Positions 6,015-21,778 of a stretch of 64,000 nt of DNA are shown piece after piece. Under the pieces are notes generated by a model, which was not told where the DNA came from, made no database searches, and saw only the letters and a list, made by a program, of their open reading frames with translations. The position numbers were made by a program, and so were the translations under genes. How positions within the stretch are numbered: the first letter of the stretch is position 1; every line of letters begins with the position of its first letter. Location of the stretch: the UHGV virus genome UHGV-0300374; one strand, given 5' to 3'. Source of the DNA: a virus.

Positions 6015-6390
6015 TCATTTTATCCCTTCTAATAATTATATATTCATAATGGGACGTATGGGCTAATTGCTGTGACCAATCCATAGTCATAAATACTTCA
6101 TACTCATGACCATCAATCATAACAATATCAGACTCATTCCACTCTACATCATCTGAAGTTCTAAGTTTATATGTAGTATACAGGATTCTTGTATCGGTAA
6201 GCCTAATACCTTCCGGTAAAGCAATCTGTGTACCATTCTTTACAGAACCTTTGATATATGGCTGGATATTACCTTTGCAGTTAACCTCTACAATATCTTG
6301 TGAAGCTACCCAATCACCATCATCATTATAATAACCGTCTTCAGAGACTTTACGCTTTACTACAAAGCTGTGTCTGTTTAAGAGTCTCAT
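5989..6390 (-). CDS. hypothetical virion protein (neck/tail module)
   Basis: ORF track; overlaps neighbours in operon fashion. Confidence 0.3.
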   Translation of the reverse strand: MRLLNRHSFVVKRKVSEDGYYNDDGDWVASQDIVEVNCKGNIQPYIKGSVKNGTQIALPEGIRLTDTRILYTTYKLRTSDDVEWNESDIVMIDGHEYEVFMTMDWSQQLAHTSHYEYIIIRRDKMNAVRNSRT

Positions 6391-17505: not shown

Positions 17506-17761
17506 ATTAAATCTTTTTAGAGAACTTCTAAGAACCTAAGCAACAAGGTTCCACAACAAGCTGTAATAACCTTAGAAGCCCTCTAAAAAGACCTAAAAAG
17601 GTCTTTGCATAGTCTTGTTTAATCCGGTGACTAGAACCTTTGGAGAGCTTGATATTATCTCTTCTCCGTGACACCTACTAGGTGCTTTATCAGTGTGTAC
17701 GACAATACACGAGGGATACCAAAGCAACATCCGAATGAAGCTTGGCTTTAAAATCTTATTA

Positions 17762-17851
17762 GGCGGTAAGTAAAGGAGTCGAACCCTCACCGTATCTCTA
17801 CAGTGGCAACTGTTTTCAAGACAGTTTGGCTACCATTAGCCGCTACCTACC
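17762..17851 (-). tRNA. tRNA-Ser (UGA), long variable arm
   Basis: Acceptor GGTAGGT/ACTTACC, anticodon stem ACTGT/ACAGT loop CTTGAAA, about 90 nt, CCA not fully encoded. Confidence 0.55.
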
Positions 17852-17864
17852 CCTAATAAGACTT

Positions 17865-17947
17865 TGGCATGGGACGGAGGAGTTGAACCCCTTTGAAACG
17901 GTGTTGGAAGCCGTTGCTCATGCCTTAGAGTCTTAACATCGTCCCAT
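17865..17947 (-). tRNA. tRNA-Trp (CCA) candidate with extended D region
   Basis: Perfect acceptor ATGGGAC/GTCCCAT, T-loop TTCAACT, hairpin AACGG-CTTCCAACA-CCGTT carrying CCA; D region about 7 nt longer than canonical. Confidence 0.4.
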
Positions 17948-18166: not shown

Positions 18167-18413
18167 ATTAATCTTTAAAGACTCTCTTAGAAAGCCCTTA
18201 AAGATGCCCACCTTATTAATCATACCGTGGGCTAGTACGCCAAATTCTTTGATGAGGGATTGGAAGACCTCACTGGTGTTTAGCCTATCAAGCTACTGCC
18301 AGAAAAACATTGTCGTTTGCATTTATTTTAAATTTGCAAAATAGACGCTACGCAACGAAAACTAAGGTTACTATAAAGTAGTCACATCTCAATGTCAACA
18401 ACTTTATTGAAAT

Positions 18414-18571: not shown

Positions 18572-18647
18572 TGGTAGAAGTGGAGGGAATTGAACCCATC
18601 GTCTTACTGATTAAGAGTCAGCCGCATAACCATTCTGCTACACTTCC
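18572..18647 (-). tRNA. tRNA-Lys (CUU), copy 2
   Basis: Anticodon/T-arm identical to copy at 17345-17420 but acceptor GGAAGTG/CACTTCT. Confidence 0.55.
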
Positions 18648-18653
18648 ATTAAA

Positions 18654-18793
18654 TTATCTTTGTAGATAAGCTACCCAGACTTGCTTAAGGTCTGTAGCGA
18701 TGTGCCTTTTTGGGTTTAAATCTAGAATTTACCCTTTCACCCTTTGTGGTCGCATACTCACAGGTAAGCTTAATAACTTATCTACAAAGATAA
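18654..18793 (-). ncRNA. structured spacer bounded by perfect 17-bp inverted repeat (candidate small RNA/processing element)
   Basis: ttatctttgtagataag at 18654-18670 and its exact reverse complement at 18777-18793, 106 nt apart; no tRNA fold, no credible ORF. Confidence 0.35.
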
Positions 18794-18829
18794 TTACCAG
18801 ACCGTTGTTTATCATCTTAAGTGCTACCA

Positions 18830-18878
18830 TTACACCAACTCGACATCTGCCGAGTGAAGGAATCGAACCTTCGCCTTT
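18830..18878 (-). ncRNA. tRNA-like minihelix/tRNA fragment (T-arm plus closed acceptor hairpin)
   Basis: GAAGGTTCGATTCCTTC T-arm followed by ACTCGGC-AGAT-GTCGAGT hairpin then a D-arm-like GGTGTAATGGTAGCAC; no matching 5' acceptor strand upstream. Confidence 0.35.
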
Positions 18879-18907
18879 TCTTTACCGAGAAATAGATTGT
18901 TTAAGTT

Positions 18908-18935
18908 TTGCTGTAAACGGTCTTCTGTAAATTTG
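18908..18935 (-). repeat. conserved 28-nt tRNA-spacer motif, copy 1
   Basis: ttgctgtaaacggtcttctgtaaatttg; identical copy at 19390 and variants at 18996 and 19566. Confidence 0.5.
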
Positions 18936-18995
18936 TTGAGCCAGACCAAGTTTTAAATTTTTCAAAATTAAATTGGCTTGAAATTTTAAGTAACT

Positions 18996-19015
18996 TGCTG
19001 TATTTGGTCTTCTGC
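18996..19015 (-). repeat. conserved tRNA-spacer motif, copy 2 (variant)
   Basis: ttgctgtatttggtcttctg. Confidence 0.4.
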
Positions 19016-19075
19016 TCCTTTAAAGGATACTCGTAAGAACCCTTTAAGGGAGGGGCTAAATAGCCCTCTCAAAAT

Positions 19076-19152
19076 TGGCGGTTACGAAGGGATTTGAACC
19101 CTCATCATCTCCCGTGACAGGGGAGTATTTTAACCAAATTAAACTACATAAC
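19076..19152 (-). tRNA. tRNA-Asp (GUC)
   Basis: Perfect anticodon stem CTCCC/GGGAG loop CTGTCAC; acceptor GGTTATG/CGTAACC. Confidence 0.7.
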
Positions 19153-19157
19153 CTTTA

Positions 19158-19246
19158 TTGGTGTGCCGTGTAGGAGTCGAACCTACCGAGTCTCAATGAC
19201 AAGGGATTTACAGTCCCCACCGCTACCATCTACGGGATAACGACAC
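19158..19246 (-). tRNA. tRNA-Tyr (GUA), long variable arm
   Basis: Anticodon stem GGGGA/TCCCT loop CTGTAAA; 89 nt; T-arm GTAGGTTCGACTCCTAC. Confidence 0.65.
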
Positions 19247-19255
19247 ATTTAAATT

Positions 19256-19332
19256 TGGCGGTTAGTCAGGGATTCGAACCCTGTGCCATTCGCTTAACAG
19301 GCGACCGCACATACCTTATGTGCTTCCTAACC
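19256..19332 (-). tRNA. tRNA-Asn (GUU)
   Basis: Anticodon loop CTGTTAA; D-arm GCACA..TGTGC; T-arm CAGGGTTCGAATCCCTG. Confidence 0.6.
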
Positions 19333-19389
19333 ATGTTTAGCATTACCAGACCGTATATTTCAATTTTTCCGCTAAAAATTTAATAAATA

Positions 19390-19418
19390 TTGCTGTAAAC
19401 GGTCTTCTGTAAATTTGG
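19390..19418 (-). repeat. conserved 28-nt tRNA-spacer motif, copy 3
   Basis: ttgctgtaaacggtcttctgtaaatttgg abutting the 3' end of the tRNA at 19416. Confidence 0.5.
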
Positions 19419-19492
19419 AGGCGGGTGCAGGAGTCGAACCTGCCGATACCATGCTAATGAGACATGTGAGACGCCCTTTCTCTATACCCGCA
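19416..19492 (-). tRNA. tRNA with CAU anticodon (second Met, initiator or Ile-lysidine type)
   Basis: Anticodon stem CATGT/GCATG loop CTCATTA; T-arm GCAGGTTCGACTCCTGC; 1:72 mismatch. Confidence 0.5.
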
Positions 19493-19565
19493 ATTCTTAA
19501 TGACCAGACCAAATATCTTCTTTGTCCGATTAACTTTCAGATGAGTAGATTAAGTTTGCTGTAAT

Positions 19566-19595
19566 TGGTCTTCTGTCAAAACTGGCGTTCCAGAA
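19566..19595 (-). repeat. conserved tRNA-spacer motif, copy 4 (variant)
   Basis: ttgctgtaattggtcttctgtcaaaactgg; minus-strand reading contains TTGACA. Confidence 0.45.
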
Positions 19596-19670
19596 GGGAT
19601 TTGAACCCTCAAATATCCACTTTGAAAGAGTGGTGACTTTACCATTTTGTCTACTGGAACATTAATTTGG
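19593..19670 (-). tRNA. tRNA-Glu (UUC)
   Basis: Perfect anticodon stem CCACT/AGTGG loop CTTTCAA; acceptor GTTCCAG/CTGGAAC. Confidence 0.7.
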
Positions 19671-21406: not shown

Positions 21407-21778
21407 TTATTTTTTAAGCGTTGCTACAGCAGAGAACGTTGGTTTGTTATCTGTCTGAGACTGACCGCCGTTATCAGGGGTCTTCTTAGTGTCTGCTGCA
21501 ATTGCTTTCATCTCACCTGCTGAGTGAGTCATGATAGTTTTACCGACCTCAATCATGCTCTTGATGGTTACGTCGTCTGTGTTTAACCCGAACTCTGCAA
21601 GCTTAGCAGCGTCCCTTGTAACAATCGCTTCAAACAACTTTGCAGCAAACTCAGCAGAATTATCAATGGTCAGTTGAGCTTTTACAAGTGAGCTTTTGTT
21701 ACGAGAGCCTTTTGGTCTTCCAGATGGGTTTCCAGATTGGCCTTTTTTAAACTGGCCTTTGTTTGTTCTGTTTTTCAT
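21407..21778 (-). CDS. small basic protein with N-terminal GNPxGRPKG motif
   Basis: 123 aa; N-terminus KGQFKKGQSGNPSGRPKGSRNKS, a motif recalled from phage DUF5681-type proteins. Confidence 0.4.
   Translation of the reverse strand: MKNRTNKGQFKKGQSGNPSGRPKGSRNKSSLVKAQLTIDNSAEFAAKLFEAIVTRDAAKLAEFGLNTDDVTIKSMIEVGKTIMTHSAGEMKAIAADTKKTPDNGGQSQTDNKPTFSAVATLKK

Follow-up and report, generated by a model that had tools for sequence, protein, structure and literature searches.

Results

A Y RNA-like candidate and a second RNA module within the tRNA array

We analyzed a 64,000-nt stretch of the virus genome UHGV-0300374 (hereafter the window), which belongs to a Felix O1-like myovirus (Felixounavirus). 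Our favoured reading, to which we assign a probability of about 0.72, is that the interval 18654-18935 comprises two adjacent modules of a noncoding-RNA cluster in a tRNA operon, and that one of them, M2, is a Y RNA-like RNA of the YrlA type with a Ro60-like protein as its partner. The other module, M3, is a domain closed by a long inverted repeat. An initial annotation made from the sequence alone had treated this inverted repeat and a tRNA-like minihelix as a single object, but the two belong to M3 and M2, respectively.

The 601 bases around these modules share 98.5% identity with Escherichia phages VpaE1_ev035 and adrianh. ARAGORN predicts 26 tRNA genes between 14592 and 19744, all on the minus strand and 24 of them confirmed by Rfam, and both reported elements lie in a 428-nt tRNA-free stretch between tRNA-Asp (19153-19076) and tRNA-Lys (18647-18572). 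An alignment of this Asp-Lys spacer from nine Ounavirinae (the window and loci L001-L008), representing the three genera Felixounavirus, Mooglevirus and Suspvirus, showed that the entire spacer is conserved and modular, with the units M0, M1, M2 and M3 (Table 1). In M0, a G-C pair is replaced by A-U in a compensatory manner between the window and its eight relatives.

Table 1. Positions of the RNA modules, their parts and associated features in the window.
Feature	Position	Strand	Description and basis
Ro60-like protein gene	21325-19910	minus	471 residues; DUF2828 + DUF7788/vWA; PHROG 850 'RNA-binding protein'
Promoter match	19891-19863	minus	sigma-70 type, TTGACA-17-TAATAT; between Ro60-like gene and first tRNA
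Promoter match	19800-19771	minus	sigma-70 type, TTGACA-18-TAAAGT; between Ro60-like gene and first tRNA
Copy A	19576-19500	minus	ACAGAAGACCAA-UUACAGCAA ... UUGGUCUGG; between tRNA-Glu and tRNA-Met
Copy B	19410-19342	minus	ACAGAAGACCGU-UUACAGCAA ... ACGGUCUGG; between tRNA-Met and tRNA-Asn
M0	19072-19017	minus	two conserved hairpins directly after tRNA-Asp; inverted repeat I2; alignment of nine Ounavirinae
M1 (copy C)	19015-18937	minus	GCAGAAGACCAA-AUACAGCAA, AU-rich loop, UUGGUCUGG; direct repeat D3
M2	18928-18793	minus	long-form RNA, ~136 nt; fold, covariation, models R1/R2
M2 terminal stem	18923-18917 with 18805-18799	minus	7 bp, AGACCGU with ACGGUCU
M2 motif	18916-18908	minus	UUACAGCAA; single-stranded, directly after 5' stem strand
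M2 V hairpin	18892-18877	minus	variable-arm-like
M2 T-arm	18872-18856	minus	GAAGG-UUCGAUU-CCUUC
M2 capped acceptor hairpin	18855-18838	minus	ACUCGGC-AGAU-GUCGAGU, 7-bp stem, then UG
M2 D-arm	18835-18821	minus	GUGU-AAUGGUA-GCAC
M3	18795-18652	minus	~145-nt domain closed by inverted repeat; arms 18795-18774 and 18673-18652; ends 4 nt before tRNA-Lys
M3 core	18728-18719	minus	AUUCUAGAUU, conserved
M3 hairpin	18694-18676	minus	CAGAC-CUUAAGCAA-GUCUG; RNAalifold consensus

M2 carries a capped, circularly permuted tRNA top half

M2 starts with ACAGAAGACCGU-UUACAGCAA and finishes with ACGGUCUGG, so that its ends pair in a 7-bp stem with UUACAGCAA in an adjoining internal loop, and a short connecting helix precedes the V hairpin. 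The head beyond it is a capped, circularly permuted tRNA top half, in which V arm, T arm, closed acceptor and D arm follow one another. The 288-nt stretch that holds M2 and M3 (18935-18648) has a fold z-score of -5.2. T-arm and D-arm are invariant in the nine Ounavirinae, and the acceptor hairpin covaries among them (RNAalifold consensus): the window's clade has ACUCGGC-AGAU-GUCGAGU, Sf17, KMM2, Silverhawkium and SUSP1 have ACACGU-UACG-GCGUGU, and Michonne and Mordin have ACCCUUC-GCCAAACA-GAAGGGU, a loop which encodes the discriminator and CCA. The nucleotides of the tRNA elbow (U54 U55 C56, A58; U8, A14, G18 G19) are present in the segments UUCGAUU and U-G-GUGU-AAUGGUA, and, with A15 facing C or A, the Levitt 15:48 pair deviates from the canonical form. 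The T-arm, the AGAT-capped hairpin and the D-arm read on the minus strand just as the initial annotation had described them, with no 5' acceptor partner upstream, and of the readings it offered, that of a tRNA top-half mimic proved to be right for this conserved and covarying head.

No anticodon stem-loop can be formed in M2, and it contains no bulge-helix-bulge motif. ARAGORN reported neither a tRNA nor a tmRNA in 18648-19075, and Rfam scans of the interval, run at the gathering score and at E ≤ 10, returned only the flanking tRNAs, a bare T-arm fragment and sub-threshold Class I RNA matches. A two-piece tmRNA, also considered at the outset, is not supported by these calls, nor by a scan of 18600-19600 in which no tmRNA family of Rfam 15 matched at E ≤ 10.

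Open reading frames (ORFs) over the interval were considered as well. A 76-residue antisense ORF (18700-18930, plus strand) shrinks to 12-48 residues in relatives, and the coding reading was rejected; the same holds for a small-protein reading, the small sense ORFs not being conserved. The antisense ORF translates through the antisense strand of the T-arm, and indels in the acceptor loop among relatives are not multiples of three. On these three grounds we rejected the GenBank 'hypothetical proteins' bas63_0137, bas63_0138 and vse102_041, and the antisense 'hypothetical protein' annotations over M2 and M3 in many Felixounavirus records are probably wrong. One such annotation in a relative is found at L092:2449-2723.

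Two relatives have lost parts of the cluster. In the Salmonella phage SP116 (L090), a deletion extends from the M2 T-arm through the T-arm region of tRNA-Lys. In the Salmonella virus VSe102 (L091), tRNA-Met is joined directly to M2, and tRNA-Asn, tRNA-Tyr, tRNA-Asp, M0, M1 and copy B are gone. Both deletions have the appearance of recombination events between repeated copies of the T-arm or of the stem+motif, and they show that parts of the RNA cluster are dispensable in culture.

The topology of M2 is that of YrlA

YrlA RNAs, described for example from S. Typhimurium, M. smegmatis and mycobacteriophages, present a V hairpin, T-arm, closed acceptor and D-arm in this order, reached via a stem of the RNA's own ends, and carry a conserved single-stranded motif beside the 5' strand; they are accompanied by shorter partner RNAs (YrlB), and their genes share the strand of Ro60 and lie no more than 4 kb from it (Chen et al. 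2014, PMC4201824). In YrlA variants, the 7-bp acceptor is cleaved by RNase P and gains CCA, and the M. smegmatis YrlA is cut by RNase P (PMC4201824). M2 shares the order of the arms in the head, as seen in the minimum free energy fold, the RNAalifold consensus and a descriptor scan, as well as the terminal stem with a conserved single-stranded motif next to its 5' strand and the canonical T- and D-loop nucleotides. Moreover, the phage RNAs lie on the same strand as, and within ~4 kb of, a gene for a protein with a Ro60 fold, the long form is accompanied by shorter RNAs without the full tRNA-like domain, and each family includes members whose 7-bp acceptor with CCA invites RNase P as well as capped ones. 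Unlike YrlA, the phage RNAs are multi-copy and interleaved with genuine tRNAs, and their candidate partner is a DUF2828/DUF7788 protein rather than a Pfam TROVE protein.

A Ro60-like protein is encoded upstream of the array

Because M2 shares the YrlA topology, the neighboring gene was inspected. It lies ~1 kb upstream of M2, with its stop codon 166 nt before the first tRNA, and its product is labelled 'vWFA protein' in relatives. A confident AlphaFold2 model from 30 homologues (predicted local distance difference test, 88.5; predicted template modelling score, 0.88) shows a HEAT-repeat ring followed by a vWA domain with an intact metal ion-dependent adhesion site, the residues of which are invariant in the family. 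The ten best Foldseek matches in the PDB are all full-length Ro60/TROVE proteins, from Xenopus, human, D. radiodurans (Rsr) and Thermus phage phiLo, with E-values of 2e-8 to 4e-6 and template modelling scores of up to 0.65. Since sequence searches were not significant, the kinship with Ro60/TROVE rests on this comparison of folds.

The Ro60-like nature of the protein has already been published. It is 97% identical to its orthologue gp130 of phage Bas63. According to a 2024 preprint, gp130 resembles Ro60 in structure, is encoded upstream of the tRNAs and counteracts Ppl defence; hidden Y RNAs among phage tRNAs were only speculated upon there, and none was identified (PMC11482910). The Ro60 of phage phiLo binds Y-like RNAs and PNPase (PMC12135203). 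In comparison with the ribonucleoproteins (RNPs) of Ro60/Rsr and phiLo (PDB 1YVP, 2NVO, 9KOP/9L5Y), the protein of the window is only 10-15% identical and has no Pfam TROVE match, and the motif of the RNA is not CGAA. In phiLo the RNAs lie upstream of the gene, whereas those of the window are found downstream of it, inside the tRNA array. The next gene upstream (21407-21778, minus strand) encodes a 123-residue DUF5681 protein (PHROG 4114, unknown function), and a promoter match, TTGACA-18-TAAAGT (21394-21365), is located between it and the Ro60-like gene.

The RNAs accompany the Ro60-like gene in distant viral contigs

We fetched 80 viral contigs with homologues of the protein, including 4 kb of flanking sequence on each side; in 75 of these, termed distant here, the protein is 39-47% identical. 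A descriptor requiring a T-arm, then a capped hairpin with perfect pairing, a two-base spacer and a D-arm found modules in L018, L021, L034, L036, L045 and L075 (twice), all on the strand of the gene and none called as a tRNA. One additional match, L062 1012-1067, consists of two adjacent real tRNAs and was excluded. Each of the true matches has a terminal stem of 6-8 bp, and although the stem sequences are unrelated, U[UA]CAGCAA follows immediately.

Covariance models gave a broader picture. With R1, built from Ounavirinae sequences alone, 57 of 58 matches at E ≤ 10 were on the strand of the gene, and with R2, rebuilt from the R1 matches, this was true for all 118 matches at E ≤ 1; M2 itself scores 150 bits with R1 and 101 bits with R2. 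Removal of tRNA overlaps left 69 R2 matches at E ≤ 0.01 in 48 of the 75 distant loci, and 27 of these 48 have no tRNA at all within ~4 kb. The RNAs are positioned close to the gene, with 21 matches starting 15-64 nt past its stop codon and others ending 11-60 nt before its start. A T-loop is present in 24 of the 69 matches (long form) and absent from 45 (short form). The pairing of RNA and gene is therefore widespread among viral contigs encoding this DUF2828 protein family.

In a 45-member alignment, which was fitted to the model, 95.7% of the cells are paired, compared to 60.6% in shuffles and 33-45% in slid controls. Double changes occur in 25 of 26 pairs and in all five helices; helix 1, the terminal helix, is 97.1% paired and shows them in all of its 7 pairs. 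Many acceptors are capped by GNRA or UNCG tetraloops, and other caps start with N-CCA (L039, L075, Michonne, Mordin). Locus L039 (5896-6294) encodes two tRNA-like RNAs whose parts are arranged as in a normal tRNA. Their acceptor stems, GGAGAGA/UCUCUCC and GGGGUGA/UCACCCC, have free ends and each lead into N-CCA, and a hairpin GCAAACU/AGUUUGU and then AUUCAGCA stand in place of the anticodon arm. The next unit, at 6149-6294, is permuted, so that the same helices are found in both topologies. This coexistence explains why the Rfam tRNA model bridges neighboring units in L018 and L039, and it suggests that the family originated from tandem tRNA-like genes.

In two of the contigs, ~170 nt downstream of a short-form RNA (L079:5928-5982 and L059:5924-5978), the cyanobacterial NsiR1 family gives near-threshold matches of 38.6 and 37.7 bits (gathering score 39). 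They end in a terminator-like hairpin and U-run and may simply be terminators.

Short-form copies share the stem and motif of M2

The window contains three further copies, A, B and C (the last being M1), which share the stem and motif of M2 and are devoid of its tRNA-like head. Copy A scores 35.9 bits with R2 and 35.5 bits with R1, copy B 41.3 bits with R2 and 48 bits with R1, and M1, which is kept in the nine Ounavirinae, 30.5 bits with R2. A 19-nt pattern, AGAAGACCNNNTACAGCAA, which matches copies A and B too, has four mismatch-free matches on the minus strand, compared to 0.65 occurrences expected even if three mismatches are allowed. The module has the consensus A-A-G-R-W-U-N-N-U-U-W-C-A-G-C-A-A ... 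N-N-A-W-Y-C-U-G. G7 and U14 are found in all 76 matches, and C16, G18, C19 and A20 in at least 74 each (C16 and C19 in 75, A20 in 76); A21 is found in 67. The motif consensus of the family is UUWCAGCAA, and the copies of the window read UUACAGCAA or AUACAGCAA. With A-A-G ... C-U-G-(N)-(U) at their genomic flanks, the short forms span 59-79 nt by the model (predicted ends), compared to ~42-65 nt for mature Class I RNAs of Dictyostelia, and M2 spans 136 nt.

Resemblance to the Class I RNAs of Dictyostelia

In a first permissive Rfam scan, RF01414 (Dicty_Class_I_RNA) was the only non-tRNA family to match M1 end to end, at 15.3 bits. The family then matched 9 of 10 tested short-form copies at full length, on the correct strand and exactly on the copy: 6 of 7 in distant loci at 26.1-30.7 bits, and all three in the window at 15.3-20.5 bits (copy A 17.8, copy B 20.5 bits). 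All scores are below the gathering cut-off of 41.5 bits, and the RNAs are therefore not formal members of RF01414. Nevertheless, it does not seem plausible, from these matches, that family, position and strand agree by chance in nine of ten cases.

Class I RNAs have been known since 2004. They are ~60 nt long with 32-41% GC, start with AAG and end with CUGU. Their ends are joined by a 6-bp stem that varies and covaries in sequence apart from an invariant 5' G; the interior is variable, and an 11-nt motif, CCUUACAGCAA, in which C6, C9, A10 and A11 are near-invariant, adjoins the 5' strand (Kjellin et al. 2021, PMC7919456). They were reported to be unique to Dictyostelia and to be of unknown function, and their sole known direct binder is the RRM protein Rnp1A (PMC7919456). 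The phage RNAs have AAG and CUG(U) at their predicted ends and a variable, covarying terminal stem of 6-7 bp with an invariant 5' G, followed directly by (CC)UUACAGCAA with the same near-invariant C, C, A and A; the short forms have a variable AU-rich interior, a predicted length of ~60-75 nt and 23-41% GC. In contrast to Class I RNAs, they are found in phages of bacteria rather than in amoebae, they have no Dictyostelium upstream sequence element (DUSE) promoter, and their long form carries a tRNA-like insert not known in Dictyostelium. DUF2828 is also present in eukaryotes and in mimivirus-like sequences. That the phage stem+UUACAGCAA RNAs and the dictyostelid Class I RNAs are one family, with a DUF2828-type Ro60-like ring protein as conserved partner, is a tentative idea that we regard as possible and yet doubtful.

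The inverted repeat closes a separate, lineage-specific domain

The exact 17-bp inverted repeat reported in the initial annotation, with 106 nt between its arms, was confirmed: the 17-mer TTATCTTTGTAGATAAG at 18654-18670 (plus strand) has its exact reverse complement at 18777-18793. If one mismatch is allowed, the arms grow to 22 nt (18652-18673 and 18774-18795). First-order Markov simulations of the window (n = 100) did not once yield a perfect 17-mer inverted repeat within 300 nt, in agreement with the earlier view that it would hardly arise by chance. The arm is single-copy in the window, and a mobile-element reading of the repeat was rejected on this ground.

The outer helix of M3 (~23 bp) shows 3-4 compensatory pairs in the RNAalifold consensus of eight sequences, among them two exchanges of C-G for U-A and one for G-C; in addition, the window's clade carries a one-base insertion that is itself paired. 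Long-range pairing and minihelix are both kept in the aligned Ounavirinae by compensatory changes. The consensus also contains a three-way junction and the hairpin at 18694-18676, which reads CAGAC(C)-(C)UU(U/A)AGCAA-(G)GUCUG and has a loop that recalls the UUACAGCAA motif. This hairpin covaries between clades (CAGACC/GGUCUG vs CAAACC/GGUUUG) and resembles a stem+UUACAGCAA module reduced to a minimum by loss of the variable interior, which could make it a fifth docking site.

The clades share the arms of M3 but differ strongly in its interior, and the palindromic segment AUUCUAGAUU is the sole interior part common to both M3 types. It holds the palindrome UCUAGA in a predicted loop, where loop-loop dimerisation might be possible, although this is speculation only. 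Model R3, which represents M3, found no homologue in the 75 distant loci, its matches being confined to the window; M3 is therefore lineage-specific and, for the same reason, could not be tied to the Ro60-like gene. It is a separate RNA domain restricted to Ounavirinae, and we consider it most likely to be a processed RNA that is stable, a helix for RNase III-type processing, or a combination of the two.

We consider it improbable that the repeat acts as DNA instead, be it as palindromic protein-binding sites, as a cruciform or as the ends of a small mobile cassette. In the window's phage clade, and only there, each arm is itself palindromic (TTATCT-N4-AGATAA), and the exchange of the interior between this clade and the other Ounavirinae between retained arms is cassette-like. 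However, relatives without self-palindromy keep the long-range pairing by the compensatory changes and the paired insertion described above, and the internal hairpins of M3 covary as well; furthermore, the arm is not repeated elsewhere in the window, and M3 is located inside the transcribed tRNA operon, directly ahead of tRNA-Lys.

Weighing the Y RNA-like reading of M2

Several results weigh against a Y RNA-like M2 with a Ro60-like partner. The GNCGAA(N0-1)G / CGAA motif of YrlA, the presumed Ro60 contact, is absent, the 5' region of M2 being AGACCGU-UUACAGCAA. The initial annotation had suggested a search with Y RNA models, which was right in direction, as the YrlA topology shows, but no Y RNA-type family of Rfam 15 matched the interval at E ≤ 10, nor did one reach the gathering score in 15 related loci, in scans without a positive control; a YrlA model is part of Rfam. 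The protein has no Pfam TROVE (PF05731) match, Pfam giving DUF2828 and DUF7788 only, and a profile search against PDB TROVE chains gave E = 2, with phmmer not significant either. Within the 4-kb flanks, 27 of the 75 distant loci have no match at E ≤ 0.01 and 21 have none at all, and the covariation was counted in an alignment shaped by the model itself. The strand bias alone is weaker evidence because tRNA genes are co-oriented with the gene, a caveat mitigated by the 27 loci that carry the RNA but no tRNA. Finally, the deletion variants SP116, which has lost half of M2 together with M3, and VSe102, which has lost M0, M1 and copy B, are viable.

The main rival is that the stem+motif elements and the tRNA-like head are pure processing signals or spacers of the polycistronic tRNA transcript, providing entry for RNase P, RNase E or RNase III or insulating tRNA folding, without a functional tie to Ro60. 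It would fit the location of all copies between tRNAs here, the further long helices that adjoin tRNAs in the same array, and the fact that a 7-bp acceptor stacked on a T-arm is a minimal RNase P substrate, as in the RNase P-cut YrlA of M. smegmatis; some relatives even encode N-CCA in the acceptor loop. We regard it as unlikely all the same. It is weakened above all by the 27 distant loci where the RNA lies beside the gene with no tRNA nearby and by the 9-nt single-stranded motif, which is invariant down to 40% protein identity and not needed for processing; in addition, many copies begin right behind the stop codon of the gene, and many acceptors are sealed by GNRA/UNCG tetraloops, unlikely cleavage sites.

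Like permuted tRNA genes of the Cyanidioschyzon merolae type, M2 has a 3' half upstream of the 5' half, complementary acceptor strands and a short linker. A circularly permuted or split tRNA gene, with a transcript that is circularised or assembled in trans into a working tRNA, would also be in keeping with L039, where these parts are arranged as in a normal tRNA, the acceptor ends are free and CCA is encoded, and with the bridging of neighboring units by the Rfam tRNA model. Yet the anticodon stem-loop and the bulge-helix-bulge motif of such genes are missing, ARAGORN makes no call, stable tetraloops cap the acceptor in many members, and the place of the anticodon arm is held by the stem+UUACAGCAA module, which also stands alone in the short RNAs without any tRNA part; the termini form a putative protein-module stem and are not ligated. 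A functional permuted or split tRNA, as proposed initially, is for these reasons very improbable. Least credible is functionless debris of two tandem tRNA genes, the decayed pseudo-tRNA of the initial annotation: a plausible origin of the family from tandem tRNA-like units and the loss of parts in some phages would agree with it, but it is contradicted by the covariation, with T- and D-arms invariant over three genera and a compensating acceptor hairpin, by the fold z-score, and by the recurrence of the same architecture beside the same gene family at 39-47% protein identity. In having a tRNA-like elbow that tRNA enzymes could recognise, M2 also resembles tRNA-like small RNAs such as mascRNA.

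Other features of the tRNA array

The two promoter matches ahead of the first tRNA are consensus matches only, and their regional count is no higher than in shuffled sequence. Additional helices were found elsewhere in the array: an inverted repeat with 26-nt arms (85% complementary) just upstream of tRNA-Leu on the transcribed strand (17507-17596), 14-nt inverted-repeat arms around tRNA-Ser that resemble an rRNA-type processing stem (17750-17865), and a 17-nt hairpin just ahead of tRNA-Arg (18171-18205). Together, they suggest that helices for RNase III-type processing recur along the array.

At 17865-17947 (minus strand), an unannotated tRNA-like sequence reads AUGGGAC ... GGGGUUCAACUCCUCC-GUCCCAU-G-CCA, with a possible CUUCCAA anticodon-like loop. 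Neither ARAGORN nor the Rfam tRNA model at E ≤ 1 called it, and it may represent a tRNA that is degenerate or of unusual form; in some relatives, a 'tRNA-OTHER' or pseudo-tRNAs are annotated in this array. Two more tRNA-free gaps of ~250 nt are present on the minus strand at 18167-18413 and 17506-17761. The former is preceded by a strong promoter match, TTGACA-17-TATAGT (18398-18370), and shows a weak partial match to the tmRNA model (15 bits vs a gathering score of 47) that is probably noise.

Discussion

Sequence, structure, covariation, synteny and protein fold are direct results of this analysis, and the transcription, processing, protein binding and function of the RNAs are inferred. Under the Y RNA-like reading, the RNAs would be transcribed together with the tRNAs from promoters at ~19891 and ~19800 and released from the transcript by tRNA-processing nucleases. 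The Ro60-like ring protein, whose gene lies immediately upstream, would dock on the stem+motif module, and the tRNA-like head may be the effector end, which recruits, gates or decoys a host factor that recognises tRNA, by analogy with Y RNAs, which tether Ro60 to exoribonucleases. Since the orthologue Bas63 gp130 counters Ppl, such an RNP would probably act in RNA surveillance or counter-defence during infection.

We found no earlier description of these RNAs in Rfam 15 or in the searchable literature. Our analysis provides four concrete Y RNA candidates, which are located not among the annotated tRNAs but in gaps of the array that lack annotation or are covered by spurious antisense ORFs, and as their structure and invariant motif are defined, the RNP is directly testable. 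The near-identity of the docking module also offers a candidate protein partner for Class I RNAs, which have lacked one for two decades. If the two groups were indeed one family, Class I RNAs would be a second, previously unrecognised 'Y RNA' lineage across phages and eukaryotes, possibly also in giant viruses and plants, in both of which DUF2828 occurs. The ancestral RNP would then show itself in the phage RNAs, some of them fused with a tRNA mimic, and the Ppl counter-defence would give a genetic handle on the function of Class I RNAs. Ro60-Y RNA particles are a conserved and poorly understood RNA-surveillance machine, to which the phage RNAs would add a large new branch of Y RNAs.

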